From a virus, in the IMG/VR virus record IMGVR_UViG_3300006802_000086, positions 14,993 through 78,992 of that record: a stretch of DNA of 64,000 bases; one strand, written 5' to 3'. Below, piece by piece: positions 14,504 to 50,234 of the stretch. How positions within the stretch are numbered: the stretch's first letter is position 1; each line of letters begins with the position of its first letter. The notes beneath the pieces are model-generated. The model was not told the DNA's origin, made no database searches, and was given only the letters and a program-made list of their open reading frames with translations. A program made the position numbers and the translations under genes.

Positions 14504-17500
14504 ATGACTGCGATAAGAGTAAATGAGTCGTCGGGATCCATTGGGTCTCTACAAATTGCTGATGGATATGGAGGGTTTTTATCCGGAAGTATCATTGCAG
14601 GTTCAAATGTAACTGTACAAGATGACGGAAGCGGAAACTTTACTATAGCTAGTACCGGAGGCGGTGGAAGTATAACAGTTAACTCAGGTTCTGTTAATGT
14701 TTCCACCGTTTCTACTATTGCAGCATCAGACGGGTTTATCGTTAATGATGAAGGTAGCGGAAGGGCAGCCTTAACAGCATCAATCGGTGTATCTGAAGAC
14801 GGAACATATACAGACGGTTTATTTAAAGACTTTACACCACAAACACGGTTAGGAGTCGCAATCGATCGGTTTAATGAGATTCTTTCTCTTTTAGCACCTG
14901 CTCCAGCACCCGACCTAGACGATATAGATGTAGATGTTGACGGAACTGATGTTGAATTATCATTTGGCGCTTCTAATGACTTAGAAGGAGAAGTTACACC
15001 TTATTTTAGCGTAGGTACTGCTGCCGGTTTTTCTGCACTCGATGTTAACGATACATACTCGACAGCAGTTAGCGGAAACAATCTAAGGGCATCAGTTTTT
15101 ACAGGCACAACGCCAATAGTAGGCGATTTAAACGAAGATGTAATACAAGATCCGTCCGGGACAGGCAATAACTATCCAAACAAATCTTTTGGGAATGCTG
15201 ATCAAGGAACACTAAAATTAGAAATAAATGGATCTGTAATTCATACAGTCGATTTAACTAGTTTCACAGGCACAGGTAACCCAGGTAGCGGCACCGGTAT
15301 CACGAATTCATCCGGATCCTGTTTTACAAACTTTTCAATCGCTGGTCCTGGAACATTAGATAATGGAACTGAATTTCCTAACTTTAAGCACAGGACAGGA
15401 AAGTTTAAAGTAATTACATCTGATCAACGTCAAGGTTGGAACTATGCTAGAGTCTTGCACGAATACGGAACTACAAATCTAACAACAAACTATGTTGAGT
15501 GGGTCAACGATTCGAATGCAGACGCATTGACTGCAACAGGAAATGAAATTGACTTTACAGGCACAGGAACTGTCCACCTATCAGGCGTCGAGTATTTTAC
15601 AGGTGGGTCAGTTGAATATCGCGTAAGAGGTAACAATGTTTATAGAAATGTTTACGATACTAACAATATAACATTTACTACTTCTAATGCAGGATCATTA
15701 AGTAGCGGTGTATCATTTTCTATATCAGGTCAGTCTAAACCTACTATCGATACAGTCTCAGGTGAAGATCATACAAAAGTATTACATTTAACCGGTTCAG
15801 GTAATGTTACAGCAAATTACATGATTAACGGTTCTGTAACAGCCGGCGTTAATATTACGCATCCTTTAAAATCAAATCTTTCAAATGCCGGCCAGACAAC
15901 TGCGTCTGGGATTCTTGCTTATAATTTGTCGAATAATTCTACAAATTTAGTTGAAACTTTTAGAAGAGAAAATTTTAGAATCGTATCCGGTTCATATAAT
16001 AACCAGGCGTCACTAACAGACTCAGGAAATGTTTGGGACAGCACTGTCCATATGACAGCATCTAATGGTGCACACACAAATGGCCTACAATTTTATAATC
16101 AAAGATTATATTCACCAACAAACACACTTAACTCTGGTGATTTTAGAGATACTGACGATGGTGGTTCATTAGATAATGCACCCAGAGAAAACCCTGATTA
16201 TTCTGGAGAATCTGGCCAACGAACTTTTTATAGATGGTTTAGAAATGAAACAGGCACCACGCAATATGATTTCACAATTAATATTCAAGGAAGCGGTACA
16301 ACCATAGTTCCAGCTGCAACAGGATTAGATAGTGGCAAAATAAGAGTTTTTGTTAAGTTTCCAAATAACGGAAGTAGAGAAACTGGTTGGCTAGATTTGG
16401 CAAATGAATTTGTTTTAGACAACTATAATGACAATGACGGAGCACATACAGCAAACGGATCTCTTTCTTTTGACAACACACTAAATGCATTAAATTACGT
16501 AACCTTAGGGACAGTCGGTGTATTAGATGATGAATATATAGGATTACGAATTGAAGCTGATTCTAGTTGGACAGGTTATATTAGCCAAATAACTGTATCT
16601 TTCGGAGCGGGAACAGGTACAATAACACCCATTCCAGATTTAGATGACATTGACTGTAGTAACTCAGGAACAACAGCTTTGTTATCATTTGGTGCTACAA
16701 AATCTATAACAGGATATGAAAATGTGGGCACAACTGCTGGGTTTAGCGCTGTAGGTTTAAATGGCTTATATAATCAAACGTCAAGTGGCAATAATTTAAG
16801 AAGAGCAGTTTTTGACAAAACAACTACTATAGAGGGTGTCTTGAACCAAGACGTGAGCTTTGTTTCTCCTGACTACGTAGCAAATTCTTTTTCGGATGCC
16901 AATAGTGGATCTTTGGTTTTAGAAGTAAATGGAAGTGATTTACACTCAGTCGATTTAACCGGGGCATATAATAATGTAGGTTCTGGTGAGCCGGGTATTA
17001 ATGATGGCACCGGTGGAACATCTTTTACGGGTAATAGCGGGTTTTGGGACTTAAGTGTTTGGCGTCCTGCTGAATATGACAACGATGTTCCTTATTACTT
17101 AGAAATACAAAGAACAGGTAAATACAGAGTTCATACAGACGATCAAAGGGACGGTTGGAATTATGCCAAGGTTAAACATATTGGTAGCTGGGGAACAAGA
17201 ACTACCAACTATGTTGAATGGGTAAACGATAGTGAAAGCCAAAATAACAATATTACAGATGCAGGAACTGGGATAACGCAATTTGGCGATGATGATATAT
17301 TCCATTTGAGCGGTGTAAAATATTTTGTCAATCCGACAGGCAGTATCGAAACACGAATTAGCAATATCTATAAAAATGTCTATTCAAACGCTAGTGACGC
17401 AATATCTTTAACATCTTTGACAAATGCAAATGCAATATCAATTGTTCAAAGAGGCAGTGGTTTAACTTCGGACAGGACAGAAAATGACGGTTTTGCTCCA

Positions 17501-18412
17501 CTACAATCGTTAAATACAAATTCAGATTCTCAAAATGAAGTAACTCACATAACTGCATCAATACAGTTTAGTCAATCAACTTCTTTAAGCGGAGCTTTTA
17601 CTTCTGACACCGGTTCACAACTTTTAAATTGTGGTGGATCATTAACTTTTAAGCATCCGCTTAAAAATGATCTTACAACGTCTACACAGACTGCAACTAA
17701 TCTTTTGGTATACTCAGCAAGTGACAACTCTACTCACAACAACGAGTATTTTAATGGAGAGCAGTATAGAATACAAAGTGGTAGTTACACAACACAAGGC
17801 AGTATTACCAACGTTAGTAACGAATGGGATTCAACAACATCAATTAATGACGCAGCAGAAACAGGATTTGTTAAAGGGTTGATGGTTTACGATGGTATAT
17901 TAATATCGCCTATAAAGGGCGGTAATTCTGGCGACTTTACCAATCACGTTGAAGGCGGGGTTTTTGAAGGCCCAGACAATAATGTCGATTATAGTAGCTT
18001 GACAGAAACTAATAGAGAATATTTTAGATACTTTGAAAATACATCTAATAATGATCTTGCAAGATTTGGTATAACATTATATGGAGATGCAACTATTGTT
18101 TCCGGGTCTCATACAAAAGGTGCAGATAAAAATTGTACAATTGAATTAAAGTGCCCGGGAAAAAATCAATTTGTTGACTTAGCTAAACCCTTTTCAGTAG
18201 GGGCTGGTTCTTCTAATGAAGGTGACGGTTGTTTGTCAGGAACACTTGATGCAGCAATCGATGGAAGCGGTGCAGCAAATGAAGTTAACTTTGGTATTTA
18301 TAATGTACAAGGTCAATCATCAGGAGCTGAGTCTATTGTTTTAAGGGTTACTAGTCACAAAGATTGGACGGGTTATATTAGTCAGATTAATATCAGATGG
18401 AGTGTTCCCTAA
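14504..18412 (+). CDS. Large beta-rich virion structural protein (tail/baseplate) with internal tandem duplication
   Basis: 1302 aa, G/S/T/N-rich; two homologous ~570-aa units, each from PDLDDID to WTGYISQI. Confidence 0.7.
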   Translation: MTAIRVNESSGSIGSLQIADGYGGFLSGSIIAGSNVTVQDDGSGNFTIASTGGGGSITVNSGSVNVSTVSTIAASDGFIVNDEGSGRAALTASIGVSEDGTYTDGLFKDFTPQTRLGVAIDRFNEILSLLAPAPAPDLDDIDVDVDGTDVELSFGASNDLEGEVTPYFSVGTAAGFSALDVNDTYSTAVSGNNLRASVFTGTTPIVGDLNEDVIQDPSGTGNNYPNKSFGNADQGTLKLEINGSVIHTVDLTSFTGTGNPGSGTGITNSSGSCFTNFSIAGPGTLDNGTEFPNFKHRTGKFKVITSDQRQGWNYARVLHEYGTTNLTTNYVEWVNDSNADALTATGNEIDFTGTGTVHLSGVEYFTGGSVEYRVRGNNVYRNVYDTNNITFTTSNAGSLSSGVSFSISGQSKPTIDTVSGEDHTKVLHLTGSGNVTANYMINGSVTAGVNITHPLKSNLSNAGQTTASGILAYNLSNNSTNLVETFRRENFRIVSGSYNNQASLTDSGNVWDSTVHMTASNGAHTNGLQFYNQRLYSPTNTLNSGDFRDTDDGGSLDNAPRENPDYSGESGQRTFYRWFRNETGTTQYDFTINIQGSGTTIVPAATGLDSGKIRVFVKFPNNGSRETGWLDLANEFVLDNYNDNDGAHTANGSLSFDNTLNALNYVTLGTVGVLDDEYIGLRIEADSSWTGYISQITVSFGAGTGTITPIPDLDDIDCSNSGTTALLSFGATKSITGYENVGTTAGFSAVGLNGLYNQTSSGNNLRRAVFDKTTTIEGVLNQDVSFVSPDYVANSFSDANSGSLVLEVNGSDLHSVDLTGAYNNVGSGEPGINDGTGGTSFTGNSGFWDLSVWRPAEYDNDVPYYLEIQRTGKYRVHTDDQRDGWNYAKVKHIGSWGTRTTNYVEWVNDSESQNNNITDAGTGITQFGDDDIFHLSGVKYFVNPTGSIETRISNIYKNVYSNASDAISLTSLTNANAISIVQRGSGLTSDRTENDGFAPLQSLNTNSDSQNEVTHITASIQFSQSTSLSGAFTSDTGSQLLNCGGSLTFKHPLKNDLTTSTQTATNLLVYSASDNSTHNNEYFNGEQYRIQSGSYTTQGSITNVSNEWDSTTSINDAAETGFVKGLMVYDGILISPIKGGNSGDFTNHVEGGVFEGPDNNVDYSSLTETNREYFRYFENTSNNDLARFGITLYGDATIVSGSHTKGADKNCTIELKCPGKNQFVDLAKPFSVGAGSSNEGDGCLSGTLDAAIDGSGAANEVNFGIYNVQGQSSGAESIVLRVTSHKDWTGYISQINIRWSVP

Positions 18413-19776
18413 TGGCATTAAAGACTAACGAAACAGCAACACTTTTTTCTCAAAAGAAATTACTGGGTAAAGCACACACATCTAACTTAAACTTAGATGT
18501 AAACGAGTCTATTGGGTCAACAATACAATCCTCAGCTGGTTTATTGTTTGGTGAAGCTATTCCAACAAATCCAAGTTTAACCTTAAATACAGTTCAAAGT
18601 AATACTGTTGAATATGTAGAATTTGTCTTAGAAACGATTGCAGGTTCAACTTACGATGCAAATGATCAAGGAGGTGGCGCAGGTAGTGACAGTGGTGAGT
18701 CTTCACAAGTGTCAGGTCCGCACGCTTATGCTTTTAAATTTAAATCAGATTACGAAACTGATACTGATAATTCAAGAGCTAATGATGGAAACTTTGACAA
18801 TGATAAAATTGTACATGAAACGTTAGGGAAAGTTCAGCTAATACCACCCTTTTATTCAAGAGAGTTAGTTAATCCGTATATCATTAAAATTTATAAAGAC
18901 GATGGCGCAGGTGGTATTGGGGACGAAATACCCCTATTAGATGATATTGACTGGCAAGTTGATACATACAACGGTGTACTTTTCGTTCAAGATTATAATG
19001 CTTCAAAAATACCTGCTTTTGCTCGAGCATTTATTTATGTTGGTAAGATGCTTGACGAAGTTGTCTCTGATGCTGCAGCTTCAGGAGGTTCAGGTGGATC
19101 CGGCGGAGGTAGCAGAGAAAAAAGAGATTACGAAATATCATCAACAATCAGCTCTGGTTCAGCATTTACAGCAACAGATTCGAGCTTTACTGATTCCGAA
19201 AACGACATAACGCTAATTGATGTTTTTTATAACGGTCAATTAATGCTGTCAGGAACTAACTCTGAAGTAGGTGCTTTAGACGCAGACTATTTCACACTAT
19301 CAACAAACCAGATAAAGTTTGGATTTGACCTATTGCCAGACGATACAGTTAGCGTGATAACATATTCATCAGGTAGCGCATCGTCGGGAGGAGACGCAGA
19401 CACAGGAGCTGAATATCTAGTTTTAAGTGCAACCGGTTCTTTAAGTAATGAAAGAGTTCTGACAGCTGGAACCGGTTTACAGTCAACAGATGCTGGAGCC
19501 GGCGGCGCCTTTACAATAAAAGTTGAAAAAGAAATGGTGTTTAACGAAAAACTAGGCGGCACAGTTGACGGAACTAATACACTATTTACACTCGCTAATA
19601 CACCTTTTGCAACTAATGAGATAAGTATATTTGTGAATGGTCAACTCCAGACGCCACCTGATTTAACAACTTGGCAAGACTATTCAGTAACCGGTTCTAA
19701 CGTCTATTTTACAACCGGATCAACTCCAGAAATAGGATCTCTAATTTTAGCAATGTATAATAAGGTGGTGTCATGA
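18412..19776 (+). CDS. Virion structural protein (tail fibre/baseplate associated)
   Basis: ATG in TAATG overlap with the previous stop; two copies of a VFxNGQL...DY beta domain; Gly/Ser linkers. Confidence 0.65.
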   Translation: MALKTNETATLFSQKKLLGKAHTSNLNLDVNESIGSTIQSSAGLLFGEAIPTNPSLTLNTVQSNTVEYVEFVLETIAGSTYDANDQGGGAGSDSGESSQVSGPHAYAFKFKSDYETDTDNSRANDGNFDNDKIVHETLGKVQLIPPFYSRELVNPYIIKIYKDDGAGGIGDEIPLLDDIDWQVDTYNGVLFVQDYNASKIPAFARAFIYVGKMLDEVVSDAAASGGSGGSGGGSREKRDYEISSTISSGSAFTATDSSFTDSENDITLIDVFYNGQLMLSGTNSEVGALDADYFTLSTNQIKFGFDLLPDDTVSVITYSSGSASSGGDADTGAEYLVLSATGSLSNERVLTAGTGLQSTDAGAGGAFTIKVEKEMVFNEKLGGTVDGTNTLFTLANTPFATNEISIFVNGQLQTPPDLTTWQDYSVTGSNVYFTTGSTPEIGSLILAMYNKVVS

Positions 19777-20111: not shown

Positions 20112-21989
20112 ATGGCTTCAAAAACACAATTAAGACTGGGTCAAATTACTGGCTCATTTGACAATGTTGAAGGCGGCATTGTAGATAACAGGGCAGCTCA
20201 AGCAGGTGCAGCAAATATTAATGCATTGACATTAAGTTCAGGCTCTCTAGTAGGCGTTTTTTCAGAACTTGCTTCTGCTGTTAAAAGAGTTCACGGTGGT
20301 GATACTTTTGCCGGTGCTCTTGCTGGTGAGTTTTTGCAAGGAATTACAGTAGCAGATGCAGGTGGTTTAACAATTGGTGCCGGTGGAAATGAATTCAGTA
20401 TTACTGAGTCTAGTGATGACGTTACTCTTAAAACTTTAATATCTGACAAGGATATGATTTTTAATGTGAACGACGACGGAACTGACACAGAGGTATTTAG
20501 GTTAGACGGAGACGTATCAGCGCTTAAGATGGCGTCTGGAAAGCAAATCCAATTCGGTGACGCTGGAGAAAACATTAGTGGTGATGGTACTGATCTTGCA
20601 GTTAATTCGAGCAATAACATCGATATTGTTGCGGCTAATCTTTTGACAATTGATGCACAAGGTACTGATTCTGGAGACGGTGTAAAAATTACATTAGGGT
20701 CAGATACAGCTGATACAGTATTTAAAGTGGTTAACAACAGTGATTCAGACGCTTTTACTATTAATGGTGCAAAGAATGCTACTGTCGGCGGTAATTTAAC
20801 AGTTACGGGTGATTTAACTGTAAATGGTACAACCACAACTATTAATACTGACAGCTTGGTTGTTGAAGATGCAGTTATTGCTTTAGCATCAGGATCAGCA
20901 GCAACTGCAGACGTTAACTCAGCTTTGGTTTTCCAAAGAGCAACTGCAGATTTAGGTGGCAACACTGATATGCAAAACGGTGCATTGATGTTCTTGCAAG
21001 GAACAGGGTTTAAATTAGGCTATACAAATGACAACGCTGAAACTGCACAAGGTTCCCTTGCAATTGCTAATGATGATTTAGCATCAGTTTGGGTTGACAG
21101 GTTAAATATTGCCGGAGACACTCACTATTTTAATGTAGCTGGTAGTACACTTTCAGCAATCGCCAATTCAGAATTTGAAGTTCAATCAGGCGGTGATATC
21201 GTTCTTGATGCAGACAGTGCAAAAGTTATTTTGAAAGATGCTGGAACTGAAATAGGTAGGTTAACGCATGACTCAGGAAACGCTACGTTTATTCTTTCAT
21301 CGTCGGGTACCGACAGCATTTCTTTAGAATCTAGATCAGGTGAGGTATTCTTTAACGACCAAGATTTAACTGTAACAGCCGGTCTTAACGTTCAAACTGC
21401 TAATCAAATTAAATTCGGTCACGTGTCAGGCGGTTCGCATACCGTAGGCTTCTTAAATCTTAAAGATAATGCAGTCTCAATACTTTCCGCTTCAAGTGGT
21501 TTACAAATTGATGCAGGTGCAGATGCAGCGAATTTACAGTTGAAATCAGACAATGCTAACACATTTGCTTTTAAGGCGCCTGGTGCATTAGGCGGTAGCT
21601 ATACAGTTCAAATGCCTGGAAATGGTAATATCGCAATAGGTAAAGTTCTTAAAGTAAACAATAACATAGGCGGTGGAGAATGGGGATTAGACTGGGCATC
21701 TGAGACAGCTGCATCTTATGAGAAAGCTGCAAAAATTATCACTGGTGGGACTGTAAATGCTGGGACAGGTGTCGACATGTCATCAGTTAATCATGGGACT
21801 GCTCCTGCTTCATTACAAGTTGCTTATGCTAATGCTGACGTTTTTGTTAACGGTCAGTTATTGCTTTCAGGAACTGAAGCTAATAGATCTGGTGGTAATG
21901 TAGACTATACTGTATCTGGTGGACAAGAATTGACATTCGCTTTTAATCTTGAAGATGACGATATCATATCAGTGTTTGTAAGAGGCTAA
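20112..21989 (+). CDS. Tail fibre-like structural protein
   Basis: GNLTVTGDLTVNGTTTTINT..LVVED fibre motif; C-terminal VFVNGQLLLSG..DY domain; SD AAGGAG. Confidence 0.7.
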   Translation: MASKTQLRLGQITGSFDNVEGGIVDNRAAQAGAANINALTLSSGSLVGVFSELASAVKRVHGGDTFAGALAGEFLQGITVADAGGLTIGAGGNEFSITESSDDVTLKTLISDKDMIFNVNDDGTDTEVFRLDGDVSALKMASGKQIQFGDAGENISGDGTDLAVNSSNNIDIVAANLLTIDAQGTDSGDGVKITLGSDTADTVFKVVNNSDSDAFTINGAKNATVGGNLTVTGDLTVNGTTTTINTDSLVVEDAVIALASGSAATADVNSALVFQRATADLGGNTDMQNGALMFLQGTGFKLGYTNDNAETAQGSLAIANDDLASVWVDRLNIAGDTHYFNVAGSTLSAIANSEFEVQSGGDIVLDADSAKVILKDAGTEIGRLTHDSGNATFILSSSGTDSISLESRSGEVFFNDQDLTVTAGLNVQTANQIKFGHVSGGSHTVGFLNLKDNAVSILSASSGLQIDAGADAANLQLKSDNANTFAFKAPGALGGSYTVQMPGNGNIAIGKVLKVNNNIGGGEWGLDWASETAASYEKAAKIITGGTVNAGTGVDMSSVNHGTAPASLQVAYANADVFVNGQLLLSGTEANRSGGNVDYTVSGGQELTFAFNLEDDDIISVFVRG

Positions 21990-27352: not shown

Positions 27353-28360
27353 ATGCATGTCAAAATGTCAGATTTAAAATTAATTGTAGAAAGATTCTTA
27401 AAAGAACAAGAAGGCGACTGGCTAGGTGATGAAGAAGATAATCTAGGTAATTTAGGCGTAAACAGACTTGATCAAAAATTAAAAAATTTAAAAAATTTGT
27501 GTATTGATCAGATTATTGATGAATTATCAAGCTCAAACTTTAGAGATCAAAACATTTCAGAACAGATGTTAAAAGTAGTAGAGCGAAACTTAAAAAATGT
27601 AAGTGTTGTTGTGTCAAAAGTCACAGCTAGTAAAGAAATTAATCTTTCTTCAATGGCTATTTGTTTTACACCTAACATTACACATACCAAAGAAGAAAAT
27701 AATATGGTTTTACAGACACCTAAAATACCTAGCGACATCAATGATATTTCTAAAGATGTGCTTAGTAGATATAATTCTTCTCCTGGAAAATACCCAATCA
27801 TACTTTTTCTAGAAAAAAATATATCCAGTGACATAGATGATCAGAAACTCAAAGATATTTTACTTCACGAATTAGGTCATGTTAAAAACAACACAATAAA
27901 GGCACTATCATTAACAGCATCAGATCAGTCTGGAGAAAATATAGGAAACATTCAGCTTAATCGAGATGAGATAAAGTCAATTTTAAGAAAAGACTTTAAA
28001 GAAAAGTCTGTTAATGAAATAATATTCATATTAACTTCTGAAGGCTGGTTAGACAAAGAACAAAAAGATGAAAATCAAGAGTTAGTAAGTGAGCTTAAAG
28101 AATATTATGATGGTGTTGAAGACTCAAGCAACATGAAAGCAGTTGAAGAGTTAGCTGTCAGAGTATCTGCGCTAAAAAGAAATAGTGAAGCTTTTACAAG
28201 ATTTGTTGTCAATAAAGAAATAGATCGCTATACCAACATATCAAAAGATTATAATCTAGACATTGCTGACATAGTTTTACTTATAAGTAAAAATGCAAAT
28301 ACTAATGATATAAATAAAATTGTCAAAAATAAGCAGTCAAGAAAAAATGTAACTGTATAA
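27353..28360 (+). CDS. Leader-bearing zincin-like metalloprotease
   Basis: N-terminus MHVKMSDLKLIVERFLKE; LLHELGHV (HExxH) and downstream EELAVR. Confidence 0.55.
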   Translation: MHVKMSDLKLIVERFLKEQEGDWLGDEEDNLGNLGVNRLDQKLKNLKNLCIDQIIDELSSSNFRDQNISEQMLKVVERNLKNVSVVVSKVTASKEINLSSMAICFTPNITHTKEENNMVLQTPKIPSDINDISKDVLSRYNSSPGKYPIILFLEKNISSDIDDQKLKDILLHELGHVKNNTIKALSLTASDQSGENIGNIQLNRDEIKSILRKDFKEKSVNEIIFILTSEGWLDKEQKDENQELVSELKEYYDGVEDSSNMKAVEELAVRVSALKRNSEAFTRFVVNKEIDRYTNISKDYNLDIADIVLLISKNANTNDINKIVKNKQSRKNVTV

Positions 28361-28375
28361 AATATTTGATATAAT
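28347..28375 (+). promoter_or_regulatory. Sigma70-like promoter for the cglF-like gene
   Basis: ATGTAA-N17-TATAAT. Confidence 0.6.
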
Positions 28376-28406
28376 AAAAAATATAAAACATACTAAAGGA
28401 GAAAAT

Positions 28407-28634
28407 ATGATTTTATTACTAGCAACACTATTTACAGCACAAGCAGAAGAAAACATGATCAGATATCAAAATAAAACAGAGATTGACTTTGACGCATTAG
28501 AACTTACGGGCGAAATGGTAAAACCGCAAGGATCACTAATCATTGAGAGAAGTAACGTTCGATTCAATCCGCTTATTGAACTTCGCAAAGACTTTAATCC
28601 GGAAATGGCAAAATCAGTTAACTTAATTAAGTAG
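28407..28634 (+). CDS. cglF: CglF/GltF-like adventurous gliding motility protein with signal peptide
   Basis: Signal peptide ending AQA; KTEIDFD...GEMVKPQGS...FNPLIELRKDFNPEMAKS matches the CglF pattern recalled from memory (KTxIDF...GELxKPEGS...LIxxRxxFxPExxKS). Confidence 0.75.
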   Translation: MILLLATLFTAQAEENMIRYQNKTEIDFDALELTGEMVKPQGSLIIERSNVRFNPLIELRKDFNPEMAKSVNLIK

Positions 28635-28674
28635 TTTTCCTGACCAATAAAACTAATTAGTTTAGTAATTTTTT

Positions 28675-28713
28675 AAGCACTATTTTGTAATAGTGCTTTT
28701 TTTGTCATATAAT
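28675..28713 (+). terminator. Rho-independent terminator fused with a sigma70-like promoter for thyX
   Basis: AAGCACTA...TAGTGCTT hairpin plus T run; TTGTAA(28685)-N17-TATAAT(28708). Confidence 0.75.
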
Positions 28714-30207: not shown

Positions 30208-30243
30208 GCCTAACAGGATTAAGCTAATGCTTTCTTGTTAGGC
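30208..30243. terminator. Hairpin between convergent genes (possible bidirectional terminator)
   Basis: GCCTAACAGGA ... TCTTGTTAGGC inverted repeat. Confidence 0.4.
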
Positions 30244-33200
30244 ACTATTTTAACTAAAATTAAGAAAACTGTATGTGATCTGTTAATTGATATCTTTTTC
30301 ATAGTTCCACCTGTTGTCGATGTGTTGTCTAAATTACCACCAATTAATTTTCCTCCTGAGTAAACGTTCATATGTGCACCTGACTGAGGCTCCGATCCTG
30401 CAAATTTTTTAAAGGTTTTCATACCGCAACCAGAAGGAAGTCCTCTTTTAGAACTATAACCGTTAAGCGAAAAGACGCCGTCTAGAAGGTTTAAGTCAGA
30501 TCTAGATTCGACCTCTTCCCTAGTAAAGGGTAGCAAAACTACTTGCCCGATAAAACTTTCAGGATCATTTTCAACTTCTTGTCTTTTTAACATTAATTGT
30601 GCCCACGGGTATGAAATCCCCATTTGCTTTGGCACGCTGTTTACTATATCGTAGGCAGGATGCGAAGGAGTTACCATTGCATTGAAAGTATGTCCACTCC
30701 AAGCTACTCTATTTAAGTACTTCCAACTATCTTTAATATTGACAGGCATGAATGTATCTGGGTGCATCAGCGCTATTTTTCCGTCACCATGATTTGTAAT
30801 TGCTTGCTTGACAACAATATCATTTATTTTCTTAAGACCTTCTTCTGACTTTTCGCCAAACCCTGTGATTTGTGAAAGTAATCTCTCACCCTCAGCAGCA
30901 CCTGCAGACATGTCCAGCTGTTCAAACTTAATAGGTAAAGAATCCTCATCTAAAAATGCATGTTCCTTCGGATTAAAATTTTTCTTAGAAGCTTTTGAAG
31001 AGTTGTCCTTGACAGAATTCGAAGACTTCGATACTTGTTTTTCTTTTTCAATAATTTTTTTCTGAAGTTCACTATTTCCTTTAAACGATTTACTTACTGC
31101 ATCTGGGCCGCTATAATTACCGTCCTTAATATCTTTGTATACTTTGGCAGGATTAATATAGTTTTCTTTAAATAAATAATTTCTAATTTTACGAACTGAT
31201 TCATTCAAAGGTTCAATCTTAAAATTCTTGTCAACACCTCTTTTTGCCTGTCCTATCTGTCCGGACACGGAATCGACAGCAATAACAATGTCATCAATAT
31301 AGAATTTATAATATCTGTTTTTCATACCTCTGCCAGCTGTATATGTTCCAGGCTCACCTTTTTTATCTCCGTAAGCCATTTCCATTTTTCCACCGGTATC
31401 TTGATTTTTCTTTTTATTGAATTCCTGCGTAGCTTTTTTAATAGCTTCCGGGTCTTGTGCGAGTCTTACCATCTCTGCAACGCCTGAAGGATTTTTCTTT
31501 TTCGGATCATTAAGTACTAAACTAGCCACTTGTGCAGCGTTATTTTTAAATTTAAGAATCGTTTCTTTTTTAACACCCTTGTCAATTGCTGCTTTTATAA
31601 TCATGTCAATATTTTTTTCGATCCAGGCCACCCAAGCTTTGTCTGTGTTAGGCCCCCAATCTCCATCAACTGTAGTACCAATAACACCTTGGACATATTC
31701 AACATCTTTTTTATTATTTTCTATTAAGACACTTTTAATTGCTTTTCTTAAGCTTGCTTCTGTTAAAATCATTTTACCTTTCCTTGTTTTAAAAATATTT
31801 TCTGCCATGGCTTTTTGCTTAGGCATAATTTCTGATTCAATTGTTGCAACAAATTGCTCACCAGGCTTTTCATCAACATGCACACCATCTCTCGAGCTAG
31901 TAACATTTGACTCAAACCACGGGTAGGGATCGATAACATTAATTCTTCCTGACATTCCTAATTGAGACTCAACAGCATCAATACCTGCAACAATCTCTCT
32001 GTTTCTTTTTGCTCGAGTTGCTTTAAATTTTGAAACTTCTCGCTCAGGTTTTCCAGGGGTGTTGACATATGTTGTTTTCTCTGTAGGTTTAACTGCAGGC
32101 GGCGCCAAGACCCAAGTTATTTGTGCGTCTTCTGGGGCATTTTGTAAAATATCTTTTGCCAAATAACTAGCTCTGCTAGAACCGTTGCCGCCTAGCGTAA
32201 GGATAATATTGTTTGTTCTGCTGACTGCATCAATAATTTTATCTTCCCCAAACTCACTCATGACGCCTGCTGGTGTAGCTCCGTTCTTCTGAAAAAAGTT
32301 CTTTCCCTTCGTAGCTGTGCCTAGGCGTTTTCTAATTCCTTTTCCTAGACCGCTGTTGCCTTGACTGTCTGCAATGTATACATACGGGAGAGGTTCGTCA
32401 GAAGATTCTCTCTGTTGTTTCTGTTCGCCACTTTCTCCTTCAAATCCTAATAAAAATAATTTAGCTTCTTCGTGCCTTCTCTTTTCTAGGCCCTGCACAT
32501 ATTCACCCTTGCTAGTTCTAGGTTTTGCATCTATTACATCAGCTGCTTCTTTATAACGACCTTGATTAATTAATTGCGTTATAGACTCGCCTTTATTATT
32601 TTTAAATTTATTTAAAGCACTTGCACCTCCATTAAAGCAATAACTTGCTAATGCAACAAACATGTTATGAGTGATTGGTGCTTTTAATTGTGACTTAAAT
32701 ACTCGTGTATGTTTTGCAACGTCGCTTCCAAAGAGTTCTAGAGCTTGTTGTAAATTCATTTCCTTTGATCCACTTCCTAAAAATTCTTTAAATTTTTCTC
32801 TTTCGTTTGATCTAATTAAGTGCCCAATGCCAATTGTTGGATATCCGCTTGACTCTTCATAGCTATTTATTGTTCTCCCGCCTTTGTCATCATAAACTTT
32901 TGATCTAAAACCTTCACCGCCTTTTATAAATACTTGAATTTCTTTAGACACGTCTTCGTATTGACTAGCACTTTTTAATGTTTGATCCGCAGTAAATTTT
33001 CCACCACCAGCCTTGTTAATTTTTGCCTCAAGACCTTTGACAGCTTTGTTAACAATTTTAGCGTCTGAATTTGAATTATTACCTGGCGAAGTAGGAATAT
33101 TAAGTTTTGACTTTGATTTCACAGCTTTCTTAAGTGTGTCAGCTTTTTTCTTGATAGTATCCTTAAACTCACTGCTAATTTTCTCTGCACCTTTTATGCT

Positions 33201-34280
33201 CCCAGATTCAATTCCTTTTTGGACTTTGTCAATAATTTTGCTTACATCTAATTTTCTCTCTCTTAGAATTTTATATCTATGTCTTTTTAGAATTCTTTGT
33301 TCTTTTAAGTATTCCCCGCCTTTTCCTCTAGGTCTTTGGTAAACTTCACCATCAGTATCAATAGCAACTGCAACATCATCAATCCAAAATTTTAAATAGT
33401 CTTTGTCGATACCTTTGCCTGTCTCTGCTTTTTTAAACCCCATTAATACTGGCTCGTTATTTGTTCCAAATTTTTTAAGATACTCTTCATACTCTTCTTT
33501 AAAAGTTGTATATGCTAACTTAAAATGGTCATTGTTAAAACTACCTCGCCTTCCTAAGGTTTTGTCATCGCTAGGCAGGTCTTTAAGCGCATTTGCAATT
33601 TCTTCTTTAGATTTATTATCATTAATCCAGTCTCGAAACATATCACCCTTATCTTGGTTTAAATCTTTAGGAATTCTTTTAAGCTGCTCATCTGTAAATT
33701 CATATTTTTTATCTTTTGAAGATTTCGATTGTGATTTTGTTCCACCATATTTTTTATCTAAATTCTCACCACCTTTCTTGTTGATAGGTGTCCAAGGTCC
33801 ATTATTTTTACTGTAACTCCACCCAAATTCTGCAGAAGGATCTTTTTTGTATTTGTAAACACCGTCGCCATCATCGTATATTTTTTCTTTAGAAAAATTT
33901 TCTATCTTTCCTATTTGTTCAGCGGCCGGCCCTGAAATAACTTTATATTTGCCATTACCTAAGTCTTCGTAAGTAAAGCCTGATAAGTCTTTGTCAGATT
34001 TAATCCCAAGTTCTTGAGCATTTTTACCTAAAGTTTCTTTTTTGGTAAATTCTTCATAATAAGTTTTAAGCATGTAATAAGCTACTCTTTTCCCATCAGG
34101 AACATCTGCCTTATCTAAAGCTGCCTTTATATTTGGTGCTTTTGTAGATTTAAAACGCAAAGCATTGTCATTAGAGCCAAAACCTGTGTCAAAGCCTATA
34201 TACTTTTTTGATTCTTCTTGCTCGCGAAGAAGTCTTTTGAGTGATTTAATTTTAATAAGTTTGTTTAGATTGTTATTCAT
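30219..34280 (-). CDS. Multidomain virion-associated peptidoglycan hydrolase: GH24 lysozyme + SGNH hydrolase + PG-binding domain + C-terminal CHAP/DUF2272-like domain
   Basis: EGFRSKVYDD...YPTIGIGH...GLEKRRHEE (lysozyme); IADSQ, LGGNG, DGVH (SGNH); VQGVIGTTVDGDWGPNT (PG-binding); AWSG...HMNV...IGGN. Confidence 0.8.
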   Translation of the reverse strand: MNNNLNKLIKIKSLKRLLREQEESKKYIGFDTGFGSNDNALRFKSTKAPNIKAALDKADVPDGKRVAYYMLKTYYEEFTKKETLGKNAQELGIKSDKDLSGFTYEDLGNGKYKVISGPAAEQIGKIENFSKEKIYDDGDGVYKYKKDPSAEFGWSYSKNNGPWTPINKKGGENLDKKYGGTKSQSKSSKDKKYEFTDEQLKRIPKDLNQDKGDMFRDWINDNKSKEEIANALKDLPSDDKTLGRRGSFNNDHFKLAYTTFKEEYEEYLKKFGTNNEPVLMGFKKAETGKGIDKDYLKFWIDDVAVAIDTDGEVYQRPRGKGGEYLKEQRILKRHRYKILRERKLDVSKIIDKVQKGIESGSIKGAEKISSEFKDTIKKKADTLKKAVKSKSKLNIPTSPGNNSNSDAKIVNKAVKGLEAKINKAGGGKFTADQTLKSASQYEDVSKEIQVFIKGGEGFRSKVYDDKGGRTINSYEESSGYPTIGIGHLIRSNEREKFKEFLGSGSKEMNLQQALELFGSDVAKHTRVFKSQLKAPITHNMFVALASYCFNGGASALNKFKNNKGESITQLINQGRYKEAADVIDAKPRTSKGEYVQGLEKRRHEEAKLFLLGFEGESGEQKQQRESSDEPLPYVYIADSQGNSGLGKGIRKRLGTATKGKNFFQKNGATPAGVMSEFGEDKIIDAVSRTNNIILTLGGNGSSRASYLAKDILQNAPEDAQITWVLAPPAVKPTEKTTYVNTPGKPEREVSKFKATRAKRNREIVAGIDAVESQLGMSGRINVIDPYPWFESNVTSSRDGVHVDEKPGEQFVATIESEIMPKQKAMAENIFKTRKGKMILTEASLRKAIKSVLIENNKKDVEYVQGVIGTTVDGDWGPNTDKAWVAWIEKNIDMIIKAAIDKGVKKETILKFKNNAAQVASLVLNDPKKKNPSGVAEMVRLAQDPEAIKKATQEFNKKKNQDTGGKMEMAYGDKKGEPGTYTAGRGMKNRYYKFYIDDIVIAVDSVSGQIGQAKRGVDKNFKIEPLNESVRKIRNYLFKENYINPAKVYKDIKDGNYSGPDAVSKSFKGNSELQKKIIEKEKQVSKSSNSVKDNSSKASKKNFNPKEHAFLDEDSLPIKFEQLDMSAGAAEGERLLSQITGFGEKSEEGLKKINDIVVKQAITNHGDGKIALMHPDTFMPVNIKDSWKYLNRVAWSGHTFNAMVTPSHPAYDIVNSVPKQMGISYPWAQLMLKRQEVENDPESFIGQVVLLPFTREEVESRSDLNLLDGVFSLNGYSSKRGLPSGCGMKTFKKFAGSEPQSGAHMNVYSGGKLIGGNLDNTSTTGGTMKKISINRSHTVFLILVKIVPNKKALA

Positions 34281-34411: not shown

Positions 34412-35404
34412 ATGAAAAAAGTATTTATTACCGGTGAAAAAGGTTTTATTGGAACAAATTTGGCCAAACGTGCCAAATTACACGGTTTCGAACATGTCTC
34501 TGGTGTGCATGCACAAAACGAAGACGCAGTTTTCGTATCACAATATGTCACAGAAAAGGGTGAACCTTGTGTGCATCAAAATAGCGAGGAAGCATGGCAA
34601 TCTTTCTTTGAAGTCAACAGCATCGACTATGTAATCCATAATGCAGCAGTTGTAGGTACAGATGTAGTTGCACTCAATGCAAAAGAGTCAACATTAACCA
34701 ACGTGCAAGGTACTTTCAACATCTGTCGTGCTGCAAAGAAATGCGGTATTCCAGTCTGTTATATGGGAACCACAGTTATTTATGACACACCTAAGTATCA
34801 ACAATCAGCTATTGTCGAAGACTCCGATCGCGGCCCTAGTACATTCTACGGTTGTCAGAAACTCTCAGCTGAGGAAGTTGTCAAGTCTCATAGCAGCAAG
34901 TGGATGATCGTCCGCCCACTCTTTGCTTATGGCGGTGAAGGTGATATGAATTCTCTTATTGCCAAAACGATCTATGCAAAACTCAACGGTGTAGAAAAGA
35001 TCCAAATGTTTCTCGATCCTAGTAAGATTAAAGACTACTTACATGTCAATGACTACTGTGACGGTGTTTTCTCTTGCATGAAAGAAGACAAGTGCTGGAA
35101 CAATGACTTTAATATCGCCGCAGAAACACCACTTGTCACCGGTGAAATTATCAAATTAATGGACGAAGTGTGTGGTCAGAGTTTCGCAGATACTGTAGAA
35201 TGGCTTCCGCAGACTGAATATATGGGAAATCATATCTTATCAAGTGCAAAAGCAAGAGAGTATACTGGCTGGTCTCCACGTATATCACTGGCTAAAGGTA
35301 TTCGCATGTCATACGAAAGTATTCTCAAGTCAGAAGGTTATAATCCTCTGCGTTATCTTGAAGAAGCAGCAGAGCGCAATATTGATTTAACAGAGTATTT
35401 TTAG
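34412..35404 (+). CDS. NAD-dependent epimerase/dehydratase (extended SDR)
   Basis: TGEKGFIG, HNAA, YGCQK (YxxxK), KDYLHVND. Confidence 0.88.
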   Translation: MKKVFITGEKGFIGTNLAKRAKLHGFEHVSGVHAQNEDAVFVSQYVTEKGEPCVHQNSEEAWQSFFEVNSIDYVIHNAAVVGTDVVALNAKESTLTNVQGTFNICRAAKKCGIPVCYMGTTVIYDTPKYQQSAIVEDSDRGPSTFYGCQKLSAEEVVKSHSSKWMIVRPLFAYGGEGDMNSLIAKTIYAKLNGVEKIQMFLDPSKIKDYLHVNDYCDGVFSCMKEDKCWNNDFNIAAETPLVTGEIIKLMDEVCGQSFADTVEWLPQTEYMGNHILSSAKAREYTGWSPRISLAKGIRMSYESILKSEGYNPLRYLEEAAERNIDLTEYF

Positions 35405-35440: not shown

Positions 35441-37597
35441 ATGAGAATTTCAAGGCGACAACTCGGTCTATTGATAGAAAATTATTTACTCCAAGAAACG
35501 CGGCAAGCAAGACAATGGATACAAAATTCAGTCCCAGCTGAAGAACAGCAAGACTATTTAGATGCATACAATAGAGGGGTCACGATTTTATCAGACCTCT
35601 CTTGGATTAAAAAAGTAAGAGGCGGTGAGCCTGTTGCTGATATTGTGGGTGATGTTATAAGCTTTAGGATGGATGACAGTCAAACAAAACTGTTAGCCAA
35701 CGGTTTTCCAACTGATCTAACAAAAAGAAACTATCCCACAGTTGGTGAACTGAGAAGAGCTCTAGCAGTTATTAATACAGATTTAGACATGTCAAGAAAT
35801 CAAGATATCTCTATAGAAACATCAAGCCCTAATATCGATGTTATTGGTAATATAGGCCCGTGGACAATTCTCTTGCCTAAGACAAAAGAAGGATCGACAG
35901 CTTGTGACATTAGCGGTAAAGATACCACTTGGTGCACTACCAAAACAAGAGGACAAAACTTATTTTATAATTATGCAAAAGATGATTTATTCTTATATTA
36001 TGTAATGGATTACAGTCGCACCCCGGATGACCCATACAAAAGCCAAGACAGAGCATGCGTAGAAAACAACGATAGTCGTCTATCAGTTGGAATTATTAGA
36101 GGTGAAATAACCTTGGAAGGTGAAGATGGCGGTGTTTCTGTTGACGCTGCGAATAAAGGACTCTATCCCGAAGACTTAGAAAGTGCTCTAGGTCAATATC
36201 ATGATCAGGTAATTAATTTAATCAAAACCAACTTTGATTCTCACCAGTCACATCCGGGTAGAGAAAAATTTAGACAAGCAGCACAAAATATTGTTATTAT
36301 GCGTGATGCAGTTAGAGACTTGACGCCGCCTGCCAAGGCTGATTTTTTAGGTGAAGTATCCTATTCAACAAGCATGACACCCGAAGTTGTAGTCTATTTA
36401 TTTAATTTTGCTAACGAACCAATTAGAACTAAAGACTACAATACGGATGACTGGTTTTTAGAGCATGAAAGTAAAGGCAGGATTATTGAAAATATTTTTC
36501 TTAATGAGCCTAGTGCAAGCATTCCTGTGCGACTAAGAAAGTCTTTAATAGTAGAGCTAACTAAGAAACTAGGTGAAGAAGGCTTATACGCCTACCAAGA
36601 TGCACGTGGATGGTACGTCGGAACGGCAGCATCAGAACTACTAAATTCACAAAAAGAAGTTAAATCATATTTAGACCTATTGCTAGAATATTCAAATAGC
36701 CGATCTTACGATACTACGTTTGGAGATCCTATAGAGCAAATTTTAGAATCCTATTTAAGAAAACTCGACTTAAGTGATCCTGAGGTGTATCAGATAACTT
36801 TGAGTTTTATTCCTAACGCAAGAAGCACAAATTCAATTGTCCCTATTGTTAAAAATGAAAGTATCGAAGAGAGTGTACTAGAGGACATTCTTATAAATAC
36901 GCCACTCTTGCAAAACAAAGACAAAATGAGTCATGTTGCTTACGAATTATTAAATGCTCGCGCGCTCGCCATCCAACAAGTAATGGCCGAAAGAAAATTT
37001 GGAAACGGATTAAGCGCTGAGTTTTTACAAAAACATGCAAGAAGACTAACTAACGATTTTAAAGATAGAATGAGTTTAACAAAGTTGCTTTTTCAAGAAA
37101 ATTTGCCTAAAAGCTTGTTTGACGAAATATTTGATTACGTCGATACCATTGTTAAGACACCGCGGACACCTGAACAGCAAAGAAACTACATTGTAGTACT
37201 AAAGGACATGTTGAGGCACCCTTTCATGCCTGACGATGTAATAAATGAATATTCTAATGACCCAGAATTTCATGAACCACTATTGTCGAGGGTTTGGAGC
37301 ACTAACACAACTAACCCTGAAGTAGTTGAAAAGATTCTAGAAACTACAAAAGATCCGATCCCTCCATATTTTCATGACATACTAGCTAATAGTAACATGA
37401 CAAAAAGAACTTATGAAATATTAATAAACTTGCTTGATGAAGGGCTAGCTGATATGCAAGAACTAGGCGCAGTTGGAATGTTTGAGTTCAATCTAGATCC
37501 ACCTCACAGTGCTGAAGATGTAAGAAGATGCTTTGAGCACGCTTACGCCGCTGGACTAGCTAAATTAAGAGAGAGAAGGGCAGAGTTTGAGATATAA
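35441..37597 (+). CDS. Leader-bearing protein with TxWCT domain and C-terminal helical repeats
   Basis: MRISRRQLGLLIENYLLQE; PKT..GS...TTWCTT...NLFYNY; paralogous to 44236..46581. Confidence 0.65.
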   Translation: MRISRRQLGLLIENYLLQETRQARQWIQNSVPAEEQQDYLDAYNRGVTILSDLSWIKKVRGGEPVADIVGDVISFRMDDSQTKLLANGFPTDLTKRNYPTVGELRRALAVINTDLDMSRNQDISIETSSPNIDVIGNIGPWTILLPKTKEGSTACDISGKDTTWCTTKTRGQNLFYNYAKDDLFLYYVMDYSRTPDDPYKSQDRACVENNDSRLSVGIIRGEITLEGEDGGVSVDAANKGLYPEDLESALGQYHDQVINLIKTNFDSHQSHPGREKFRQAAQNIVIMRDAVRDLTPPAKADFLGEVSYSTSMTPEVVVYLFNFANEPIRTKDYNTDDWFLEHESKGRIIENIFLNEPSASIPVRLRKSLIVELTKKLGEEGLYAYQDARGWYVGTAASELLNSQKEVKSYLDLLLEYSNSRSYDTTFGDPIEQILESYLRKLDLSDPEVYQITLSFIPNARSTNSIVPIVKNESIEESVLEDILINTPLLQNKDKMSHVAYELLNARALAIQQVMAERKFGNGLSAEFLQKHARRLTNDFKDRMSLTKLLFQENLPKSLFDEIFDYVDTIVKTPRTPEQQRNYIVVLKDMLRHPFMPDDVINEYSNDPEFHEPLLSRVWSTNTTNPEVVEKILETTKDPIPPYFHDILANSNMTKRTYEILINLLDEGLADMQELGAVGMFEFNLDPPHSAEDVRRCFEHAYAAGLAKLRERRAEFEI

Positions 37598-40107: not shown

Positions 40108-43100
40108 ATGGACATTAAATTATTAACACCACCCGATCGATTTGTTGGCTTTCATGGTCATACAGGATTTTCTGTTTTTGACGGTCTAGGTTATCCATCT
40201 GATCATATCGACTTTGTACTTGAAAACGGTATGGATGCTTGGGCACTAACTGATCACGGAAACGGCAGTGGATTAGCACATGCTTATAAACATGCACAAA
40301 AAATCCAAAAGTCTGGTCGCAAATTCCGTCAAATTTACGGTTGTGAATTCTATTTTGTTCCGTCACTTAAAGACTGGAAATCCGACTACGAACAAGCCAA
40401 AGTAGATCGAGCTGCAGCAAAACAAGCTGCACTTAAAGAAGACGAAGAAGGCGGTCATATTATTGAAAACGAAGATGAGACTAAGACTTTGGATTTAGGT
40501 AAAGACGAATGGAAACGACGTTATCATCTGGTTGTTACTGCACAAAACCGCGAAGGTTTAGGTAATTTATTTACCCTGATTAAACGTGCCTATACAGACG
40601 GCTTTTATAGATATCCTCGCATTGACTTTGATCTACTTAAGCAGTATGGAAAGGGTTTGACAGTATCGACAGCTTGCCTAGGTGGCATCTTTTCTAATCG
40701 AATTATGCGTGGTAACGCATTAAACCTCACAGACGAACAAATTCAAAACGAATTATTGTACTTATCTGATCGATTTGTTGATGCTGTGGGCGAAGACAAT
40801 TTCTATTTAGAGGTGCAGTTTAATAGACTTAAGCAACAACATCTCGTAAATCATCATTTATTGCGTCATGCTGATAAAACAGGGCTTCAGCTTATTGCGA
40901 CTCCTGACTCTCATTATTACTCACCGGATAAATGGGAGGCAAGAGAGTTATATAAGAAACTAGGGTGGATGGGTAATGATCCATCACCACTTCCTGAATT
41001 CGAGGATCTTAAGTGTGAACTATATCCTAAAAATGCACAACAAATGTGGGATGAGTTTACTCGACACTATGATGAGTACAAAGAAACATATGAAGGTTAC
41101 GAAGAGGCAATTAAAAAGTCAATTGAAATTACACATGATATTGCATGGGAAAAGTGTGAAGACTGCTGGATTGATACTTCTGTTAAACTTCCCGATTTCA
41201 ATCGACCTGATCAAACAGCTTTCCAACAGCTTGCAGACAAAGTCAAGCATGCAATCGTTAAGGAAGGCCTTCATACAAAAACTGAGTATGTCGAAAGAGC
41301 TAAACACGAATTAGAAGACATTAAATTCTTAGGTTTTGAAAATTATTTTCTAGTGATGAATGAAGTATTTCATAAAGCTGCTGATCATACCTTGTTCGGA
41401 GCAGCACGCGGTTCTGGTGGTGGATCACTTGTAAATTACTTGTTAGGAATCACGCAGGTCGATCCGCTTAAATATGACTTACTTTGGGAACGTTTTCTGG
41501 GTAGACACAGAACTTCATGGCCAGATATTGACTCCGATGCAGGTGATCGTGATGCACTAATCAATGCAGCGCGTGAGTTATACGGTGATGAGGCTGTTAT
41601 TCCAGTGTCTAACTTTAACACACTTAAGCTTAAATCCTTAGTAAAAGACATTGCCAAGTTTTACGGTGTCGATTTTGGTGAAGTCAATAAAATGACAGGA
41701 CCTCTCCAAGATGAAGTCATGGCACAAGCACGAGATGAAAACACAGAAAAGTCTGTGTTTGTTCTTAAACACGCAGACTGTATGGAATATTCAAAAGGTT
41801 ACCGCTCTTTTATGGAAAAATATCCAAAAGTAAAGGATCATATTGAATCCCTCTTTATGCAAAACAGATCGATTGGTCGACATGCCGGTGGAGTTATTAT
41901 CGGCCCACCAGAAGACTTAGAACAATCAATGCCAATTATTGGTGTTCGCGGTGAACTACAAACACCTTGGACAGAAGGTATGAACTTTCGAAATCTTGAA
42001 GACAATGGGTTTATTAAGTTTGACTTTCTTGGACTTACACTTCTAAAAGATGTTGAAAACTGCATCCGACGAATTCTTACACGTGAGCGAGGCGAAGAAC
42101 CTACGTTTCTAGAAATCCGCGATTGGTTTGACAAACATCTGAACTGTCGATATGTTGATCAGGACGACGATGCAGTTTGGAAACATGTCTATCATCAACG
42201 TCGAAAGGTAGGTGTATTTCAGTTCACTGCTGAAGGTGCACGCCGATTTTGTGAAGATGCAAAACCAACAAACATTGAAGAGCTGGCCGCACTAACAGCA
42301 ATTTATCGACCCGGGCCTCTTCGTGCCAACGTTCATAAAAAGTATGTCAAAGATAAGATGAATTCAGATGAAATTCATTATGCACACCCAATCATTCAGG
42401 AAATTCTCGGCCCAACTTTTGGACATGTAACATTCCAAGAGCAGTTCATGCTTCTCGCACAAAAGCTAGGCGGGTTTACACCAGCTGAGTCAGATAAGCT
42501 TCGAAAGACCCTGGTAAAGAAATCCTTGGATACAATGGGTAAGAAAGGAGATGAACGTGAAGCAGCTAGAGTTAAATTTGTGACCGGTGCGAAAGAAATC
42601 AATGGCGTACCAGAACATATCTCCCAAGAGCTATGGGAACGGATTGAATTTTTCTCAGTTTACGGCTTTAATAAATCTCACGCTATTGCCTATGCAATTG
42701 GGTCTTATTATGCAGCGTGGCTTCACACATACTATGAAACTGATTGGTTAGGTACAATTCTTCAGTCTGAAAACAATAACCCAAATGCTTTATCAAAAGC
42801 AATTGCCGAGATTAAAGAAATGGGCTATCGCATTGAACTACCAGATGTTAATGAATCAGGTACGTATTGGCAATGGTCAGATCGAAAGCAAGCATTTATC
42901 CCACCTTTAACATCAATTAAAGGCGTAGGAAAAACTGCAGTTGTTGAAATTATGGAAAATAGACCGTATGAGTCAGTTGACGATATGTTGTTTGATAGGG
43001 AAGGGAAGTGGCGTCATTCTAAACTTAATAAAACTGGATTTGCATCACTGTGCAAAGTAGAAGCATTTAACGGATTACGTGAAATGTGGGACGGTACAAT

Positions 43101-49232: not shown

Positions 49233-50234
49233 ATGAAAACAGCACTTGTAACAGGTGGTTGCGGATTTATTGGCAGCAACTTGGTAAAAAAATTAGTAAG
49301 CCTAGGATGGCAAGTAGACGTTGTTGATGACATGTCTAACGGACATCTAGATCTTTTGACCGGTCTAGATTTTAAAGTACTCATGAATGGGTCATTCTAC
49401 ACTGCGTATAATATGCAAAGTAGTGAAAGACCTCAAGATAGAGTCTTGATTATCCAAGATGACTTTGCTGATGACAATGTATTAAATGCAATATATCAAG
49501 GAAAATACGACGTAATTTTCCATCAGGCTGCTGTACCACGTGTAAGCTATTCGGTTGATTATCCAGCTCATTCAGCAAATGTCAATATTGACAAGACAGT
49601 TCAGCTTTTTGAAGCAGCAAGAGGATCAGTTGATAGAATTGTATGGGCTTCATCATCCTCTGTTTACGGAGGCGCTGCTAATTTACCAACTCGCGAAACA
49701 GAACAGAAAAAATATAACTCACCTTACGCATGGCAAAAAGGAGCAATCGAAGACTTTGCAAAAATGTGTTGGGATCTGTATAAATTGGATATTGTATGTC
49801 TAAGATATTTTAATGTTTTCGGCCCAGGACAATATGGCGACAGCCCTTACAGTACTGCAGTCTCAGCCTGGTGTCATGCAATTAAACATGGTGAAGAATG
49901 TCGTAGCGATGGTGATGGCGAACAAACTCGAGATATGTGTTATATTGATAATATTGTTCATGCAAATATTTTAGCTGCGAATTCAATTAATAAGTTTAGA
50001 GGTGAAGCATATAATATTGCTTGTCGTAGAAAAGTTTCCAATAATGAGATATTAGAGAATTTAAAAGAACGTTTTGGAGAAAGAGTAAAAATTAAACATG
50101 CACCTGAAAGAGTAGGAGATGTTAAACATACTTTGGCAGATATTACAAAGGCAAATCGAGATTTTGGTTATGAGCCCTTAGTTCATTTTTGGGAAGGGCT
50201 GGAAAAGACATACAAGTGGTGGGGGCTGGAATAA
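49233..50234 (+). CDS. NAD-dependent UDP-sugar 4-epimerase/dehydratase
   Basis: TGGCGFIGS, HQAA, ASSSSVYG, SPYAWQK, LRYFNVFGP, QTRD. Confidence 0.92.
   Translation: MKTALVTGGCGFIGSNLVKKLVSLGWQVDVVDDMSNGHLDLLTGLDFKVLMNGSFYTAYNMQSSERPQDRVLIIQDDFADDNVLNAIYQGKYDVIFHQAAVPRVSYSVDYPAHSANVNIDKTVQLFEAARGSVDRIVWASSSSVYGGAANLPTRETEQKKYNSPYAWQKGAIEDFAKMCWDLYKLDIVCLRYFNVFGPGQYGDSPYSTAVSAWCHAIKHGEECRSDGDGEQTRDMCYIDNIVHANILAANSINKFRGEAYNIACRRKVSNNEILENLKERFGERVKIKHAPERVGDVKHTLADITKANRDFGYEPLVHFWEGLEKTYKWWGLE

Follow-up and report, generated by a model that had tools for sequence, protein, structure and literature searches.

We report that a phage sequence from IMG/VR encodes a homologue of GltF (CglF), the small periplasmic linker protein of the Agl–Glt machine of Myxococcus xanthus; profile and neighbourhood comparisons confirm this assignment. 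The window, by which we mean the whole 64,000-nucleotide stretch of DNA analysed, comprises bases 14993–78992 of record IMGVR_UViG_3300006802_000086, which is rated 26% complete and therefore implies a phage of about 300 kb. Weighing the evidence given below, together with the mechanism that we propose, we lean towards the view that an intact gltF was captured from a cellular glt cluster and has been kept alone in a phage of this size with a T4-type capsid.

A gltF homologue outside the cellular glt cluster

28407–28634, + strand: gltF (cglF) homologue, an ORF of 75 aa with an ATG start, stop codon included

The product of this ORF matched the NCBIfam profile NF033764 (adventurous gliding motility protein CglF) with E = 2.1e-11 and 43.7 bits, residues 11–72 aligning with profile positions 25–86 of 88 at a constant offset, and a six-frame search of the whole record with NF033764 gave E = 4.7e-12. 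The CglF/GltF likeness that an earlier note had described from the letters alone, and for which it had proposed a profile search, is thus borne out by a significant match. Pfam and PHROGs gave no family for the phage protein. Its score lies below the equivalog cut-off of NF033764 (90 bits), as does that of the cellular gene between gltE and gltG at locus L006 (49.2 bits). Since a positional orthologue also falls under the cut-off, the phage score reflects the distance of an aquatic lineage from Myxococcus and not membership of another family; judged by these scores, the cut-off leaves out the whole aquatic lineage, the phage copy included.

The cellular scan covered one genome per prokaryote species, and the best 80 of 88 loci, from MAGs of Myxococcota type, were retained. 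Among these best 80 of 88, the cellular proteins were 41–65% identical to phage GltF, and in all 80 the gene order was gltC, a large TPR gene (gltD), gltE, the match, gltG and cglE, which places the nearest cellular homologues between gltE and gltG. At L006 the neighbours were recognized by NCBIfam as GltC (E = 1e-73), GltE (4e-28), GltG (1e-77) and CglE (1e-27), and rplC and nqrAB follow downstream of the glt genes, so that the locus is cellular. With a high-GC cellular GltF as the query, 1,379 proteins were retrieved, the best 120 of which were all unnamed or labelled 'hypothetical'.

M. xanthus GltF is CglF (MXAN_4868; NF033764), and the profile match covers 62 of the 88 positions. The two proteins are of similar size (75 aa in the phage, 89 aa in M. 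xanthus) and both have an N-terminal leader; the phage protein retains the conserved blocks of the cellular family and is predicted to be mostly disordered with a C-terminal helix. By contrast, the phage copy stands alone among nucleotide-metabolism genes and not between gltE and gltG, its leader is reduced to 13 aa with no basic residue, and its score is under the equivalog cut-off. Compared with GltF of aquatic MAGs (L006–L009 and 76 others), identity is 41–65% over the full length, and the states EMVKPQGSL, MER and IELR in L006–L009 are common to the window's clade. The MAG genes, however, always lie in a gltC-D-E-F-G-cglE cluster and encode signal peptides of 22–30 aa, neither of which applies to the phage copy.

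The nearest MAG genomes each hold a second, divergent GltF-like gene (G001:C14:49490-49711, G002:C576:4462-4683 and G003:C893:2608-2838), 36–44% identical to the phage protein, which may be the linker of another Glt- or Nfs-type cluster. The Nfs spore-coat machine has a GltF paralogue, NfsF, which takes the corresponding small-linker place in an envelope machine of Glt type. The phage copy is much nearer to the copy in the gltC–G cluster than to the second MAG copy, whose Nfs status is supposed. The Nfs system is mentioned in PMC4488436.

Phage origin and content of the window

UvsX, DnaB, the large subunit of RNR, a DnaE-type polymerase and ThyX are all encoded in the window, together with an NT5C-like nucleotidase, a deoxyribosyltransferase and a giant protein with a lysozyme domain. 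Capsid, terminase and tail genes were not found inside the 79-kb record fragment. Two syntenic relatives, G029 (237 kb) and G030 (202 kb), have the local gene order of the window with protein identities of 78–95%, and both encode Gp23 (E = 7e-66) and the large terminase (E = 2–4e-18). A T4-type capsid is presumed for this phage from Gp23 of its syntenic relatives, and its phage origin is supported by these two genes and by its IMG/VR status, in keeping with the reading of gltF as phage-encoded in the earlier note. Megablast with 20 kb against GenBank phages gave no match, an Rfam search gave none, and neither the window nor the remaining 15 kb of the record contains a tRNA or tmRNA.

The chance that we are dealing with cellular DNA or a mis-binned contig, and with the host's own gltF, is close to nil. 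A 79-kb fragment that has no capsid, terminase or tail gene would be compatible with such an origin, but no glt neighbours surround the gene, the contig has a GC content of 35% compared with 43–71% in cellular loci, a single strand bears 65 of the 67 window genes, the replication and nucleotide genes are of phage type, and the relatives with the same gene order (78–95% identity) carry Gp23 and terminase. On these grounds, the cellular origin was rejected.

Several other genes in the window deserve mention.

30219–34280, − strand: 1,353-aa protein whose central domain is of the phage-lysozyme type (Pfam E = 6.5e-18)
34412–35404, + strand: nucleotide-sugar epimerase-like gene (phrog_540, E = 6e-41)
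49233–50234, + strand: nucleotide-sugar epimerase-like gene (phrog_540, E = 6e-75)
40108–43626, + strand: DnaE-type DNA polymerase III alpha subunit with PHP, NTPase, finger and HhH domains
14504–18412: long ORF, no PHROG family, no Pfam match
18397–19776: long ORF, no PHROG family
20112–21989: long ORF, no PHROG family, no Pfam match
35441–37597: long ORF, no PHROG family, no Pfam match
44236–46581: long ORF, no PHROG family
56073–58661: long ORF, no PHROG family

The lysozyme-domain protein, the sole long minus-strand gene of the window, may be a virion-associated wall hydrolase, and the two epimerase-like genes may serve a surface-sugar or DNA-modification pathway. The DnaE-type polymerase occurs here in a phage whose relatives carry a T4-type Gp23 capsid; a family B polymerase is usual for T4-like phages. 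The six long ORFs that lack a PHROG family encode 459–1302 aa.

Leader and putative transcription unit

The signals around gltF are as follows.

28347–28375, + strand: promoter-like site with a weak −35-like ATGTAA, a 14-nt gap and an extended −10, TGaTATAAT
28395–28401, + strand: Shine–Dalgarno sequence AAAGGAG, 5 nt 5′ of the ATG
28407–28445, + strand: short leader, a putative signal peptide (residues 1–13, MILLLATLFTAQA), with A-x-A before the cut
28675–28704, + strand: intrinsic terminator with a 10-bp stem (28675–28698), a 4-nt loop and a T-run
28685–28713, + strand: thyX promoter-like site, TTGTAA, a 17-nt spacer and TATAAT (10 of 12 matches)

The 75-aa protein and strong Shine–Dalgarno sequence described in the earlier note are both present, and most viral gltF copies have a GGAG-type site ahead of the start codon. 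The signal peptide that the note named is putative. The leader junction reads MILLLATLFTAQA|EE, with A-x-A at −3/−1 and a hydrophobic stretch, but this stretch is only about 8 residues long and there is no K/R n-region, whereas cellular GltF leaders are canonical (22–30 aa, K/R present). An ORF that extends further upstream, to include a more complete signal peptide, was ruled out, as there is no in-frame start codon upstream of 28407. Short leaders are a trait of the viral copies: a median of 24 residues precedes the conserved Tyr, compared with 34 in cellular proteins, and leaders in the window's clade have about 12–14 residues without K/R and a small −1 residue with Q, E or D after it. All viral leader variants have a small residue at −1. 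Export of phage GltF across the inner membrane is likely; it falls short of certain, given a leader of such unusual shortness that lacks a basic n-region.

Upstream of gltF, the −35-like ATGTAA (28347–28352) matches at three of six positions, and the extended −10 box (28367–28375) ends 31 nt 5′ of the ATG. A generic promoter scan found 15 sites, not above the 13.0 ± 3.8 expected by chance in 35%-GC DNA, and we therefore examined the relatives for support. A TATAAT box lies 5′ of gltF in L086, L087 and L098, three relatives which have this upstream spacer in common with the window, at a distance from the ATG of 31–44 nt over the four loci (these three and the window). In five other syntenic relatives, gltF abuts the preceding gene and the promoter is absent. 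The string TTGATATAAT is common to the upstream region of gltF and that of the gene at 3078. A T4-type late promoter was rejected, the box conserved in relatives being TATAAT and not TATAAATA.

Downstream, the terminator hairpin begins 40 nt past the gltF stop, and its folding beats 200 of 200 shuffles (z = −3.4). The hairpin is identical in L086, L087, L088 and L090 and carries a compensatory C-to-T and G-to-A pair in L091; L094 and L098 have other hairpins plus T-runs instead. The −35 of the thyX promoter-like site falls within the gltF terminator, an overlap that is kept in L087, L088 and L090. Modules in which a terminator hairpin is followed by TATAAT recur in the window, at 28675–28713 and also 5′ of 3078, 12413 and 22074. 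Together, these signals make it reasonable to regard gltF as its own short transcription unit in this phage. Of the stand-alone unit that the earlier note had described, the terminator stands firmly; the promoter is favoured by the extended −10, the TATAAT of three relatives and the recurring modules of the window, but not by the five relatives in which gltF directly follows the upstream gene.

Viral relatives and selection

An alignment-based scan of IMG/VR yielded 71 contigs with a gltF relative (34–57% GC, up to 317 kb), and at least 90 protein clusters carry one. Within 10 kb on either side of gltF, neither the window nor the 71 viral loci contain another glt gene (GltC, D, E, G or CglE). 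Searches of five whole viral records, including one of 94% completeness, found neither GltC nor a GltG C-terminal domain. About ten contigs have the order of the window, in which a 125-aa gene and the NT5C-like gene are followed by gltF, thyX and the deoxyribosyltransferase gene, with a variable 335-aa gene ahead of gltF in some cases. In nine syntenic phages the gltF site is the same.

27353–28360, + strand: 335-aa ORF directly 5′ of gltF, with an HExxH motif (HELGH)

This ORF, for which no Pfam or PHROG family was found, occurs in L086, L087 and L098 at 33–37% identity and is absent in L088–L094; it is a variable insert that adjoins the gltF slot, and its product may be a metallopeptidase.

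Viral and cellular consensus sequences of GltF are nearly identical and have the same conserved columns, with the blocks Y..TEIDF, G.LVKPQG, FNPLI.LR and EM..SV in both. Compared with syntenic orthologues, dN/dS of gltF is 0.10–0.31, synonymous sites being near saturation, and that of ThyX in the same comparison is 0.03–0.08. By this measure, gltF is under purifying selection in phages. It is also the fastest-changing conserved gene of the neighbourhood (51–76% identity versus 84–95% for ThyX). Locus L094 (IMGVR_UViG_3300010883_000046, 10001–10225) has the backbone of the window, with ThyX 87% identical, and a gltF allele closest to other viral and high-GC cellular lineages; this one locus, on 58 columns only, hints at allele exchange at a fixed gltF site.

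It is very improbable that gltF is a passenger, a piece of host DNA that was captured recently and plays no part in infection. A small gene with moron-like flanking signals and no PHROG family could look like one, but a recent arrival would hardly be carried by 71 contigs spanning 34–57% GC and by at least 90 protein clusters, nor occupy the same site in nine syntenic phages with its terminator conserved; dS is saturated, and yet dN/dS is 0.10–0.31.

Host

In the phylogeny that the earlier note had proposed for host assignment, computed here on 58 columns, the window's clade (nine viral rows, SH-aLRT 98) groups with the MAG loci L006–L009 (SH-aLRT 91–93). These are the lowest-GC cellular loci (43–46% compared with 55–71% for the others), from genomes of 4.3–5.3 Mb. 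The best tree contains six virus/cell label changes, and a single viral clade is not rejected by the AU test (p = 0.47); the best cellular identity to phage GltF is 65%. DNA nearly identical to that of the phage is present in several runs labelled freshwater metagenome. The 58-column tree and the GC content suggest a low-GC aquatic Myxococcota host. A lower-GC host from the Myxococcota, one of the two groups named in the earlier note, would agree with the position of the nearest cellular GltFs in four MAGs of 43–46% GC. The glt cluster of the candidate hosts may work not in gliding but in an envelope process of Nfs-like or different kind.

Proposed place of phage GltF in the host machine

In M. 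xanthus, GltF is an 89-aa protein with a signal peptide that is needed for gliding, is found at focal adhesions and is required for GltD clusters (PMC3169522); CglF bears a type I signal sequence (PMC3325183). In a 2025 AlphaFold model, GltF, mostly disordered with a C-terminal helix, bridges the TonB-like C-terminal domain of GltG and GltC, a strand of GltF pairing with the TonB-like domain and the C-terminal helix lying in a crevice of GltC (PMC11761067). We mapped the contact segments by profile offset from the C terminus onto this published M. xanthus model, which is itself predicted; they would correspond to phage residues ~22–39 and 61–75, which are conserved blocks.

28470–28526, + strand: most conserved block, NKTEIDFDALELTGEMVKP (residues 22–40), the presumed counterpart of the GltG-facing strand
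28563–28631, + strand: FNPLIELR block and C-terminal helix (residues 53–75), the presumed counterpart of the GltC-crevice helix

A monomer model of the phage protein is mostly disordered with a helix at residues 65–74, at low confidence (pLDDT 54). The GltG C-terminal domain is 67–96% identical over the host lineages sampled, so a linker that is 57–65% identical could plausibly fit.

We propose that gltF would be transcribed as its own short unit from the sigma-70-type −10 box, stopping at its own terminator, and that the 13-aa leader would carry the protein over the inner membrane and be cut after A13. The mature 62-aa peptide, mostly disordered, would then replace host GltF. Its TEIDF...VKPQG strand would lie along the TonB-like domain at the C terminus of the host's GltG, and its C-terminal helix would occupy the crevice in the host's GltC. 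The phage peptide would thereby sit at the junction of the inner-membrane motor side and the outer-membrane complex. Going by the conserved residues and the published model, we consider it quite probable that the peptide occupies this GltG–GltC junction of the host machine.

What the peptide would do there is a matter of more than one reading. Our preference, held tentatively and by analogy, is that phage GltF supplies the host: a small, disordered and probably short-lived part would be replaced by the phage, so that the machine stays coupled once the host's own genes are no longer properly expressed. Cyanophage psbA offers a parallel, as a phage-supplied copy of D1, a labile part of a host machine. 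There too, a lone host-derived machine component is carried without its partners and under purifying selection; the sequences are unrelated, and the turnover of GltF and the direction of its effect are suppositions. The somewhat less likely converse is that phage GltF jams the machine by excess: with the linker over-produced, GltG and GltC would each bind a separate GltF (a hook effect). As doubtful as this is what would follow from it, namely that the motor is uncoupled from the outer-membrane complex, so that gliding stops or later phages are excluded, and its variant in which the excluded phages are those entering via Glt outer-membrane proteins or the energised machine. A precedent for exclusion is T5 Llp, a phage exclusion protein that blocks FhuA; by that analogy, an envelope protein made by a phage could close off an energised route of entry, but GltF is not a lipoprotein, and Glt-based entry is hypothetical here. 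For the contact with GltG, a comparable case is the TonB box, which binds the TonB C-terminal domain. The likeness is again one of function: in the published model, the edge of a TonB-like domain is paired with a short strand (PMC11761067).

The strong Shine–Dalgarno sequence, extended −10 and own terminator fit high, independent expression and so favour titration, and the linker is carried alone, never with partners. The faster change of gltF (51–76% identity against 84–95% for ThyX) and the L094 allele, nearest to other lineages, would fit a module engaged in an arms race or in host matching. The conserved binding residues suit an inhibitor by excess as well as a supplier. Against jamming, neither binding block is systematically lost or altered in viral copies, and that Glt components act as a receptor for these phages is a supposition. 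A bridging adaptor can inhibit through over-production with no change of residues, which means that the sequence cannot separate supply from jamming. A further idea, to which we assign a low probability, is that gltF works as a host-matched cassette that can be swapped: alleles would be exchanged among large aquatic phages at a fixed site, to fit the GltG and GltC of the current host, a Glt-type machine being part of their infection cycle, either as an energised entry or exclusion route or by keeping the infected cell attached and moving. Supply remains the reading that we prefer.

Significance

A literature search that included a 2026 CRISPR-based survey of 790 myxophages found no report of a phage gltF, and a part of an envelope motility machine would be an addition to the host-derived genes known in phages. 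The gene gives a sequence-based lead to the host, aquatic Myxococcota, for many uncultured phages in the range of about 200–300 kb. If the gene is indeed a swappable, host-matched cassette, it would mark host range across a large clade of uncultured jumbo phages and would offer a natural means of probing how the linker couples the motor to the surface. GltF is the least understood part of Agl–Glt, a small disordered bridge between GltG and GltC that has so far only been modelled. Tests of binding and complementation can draw on dozens of natural variants among the phage copies, and the fact that many large phages keep the linker alone under purifying selection marks it as a control point of the machine.
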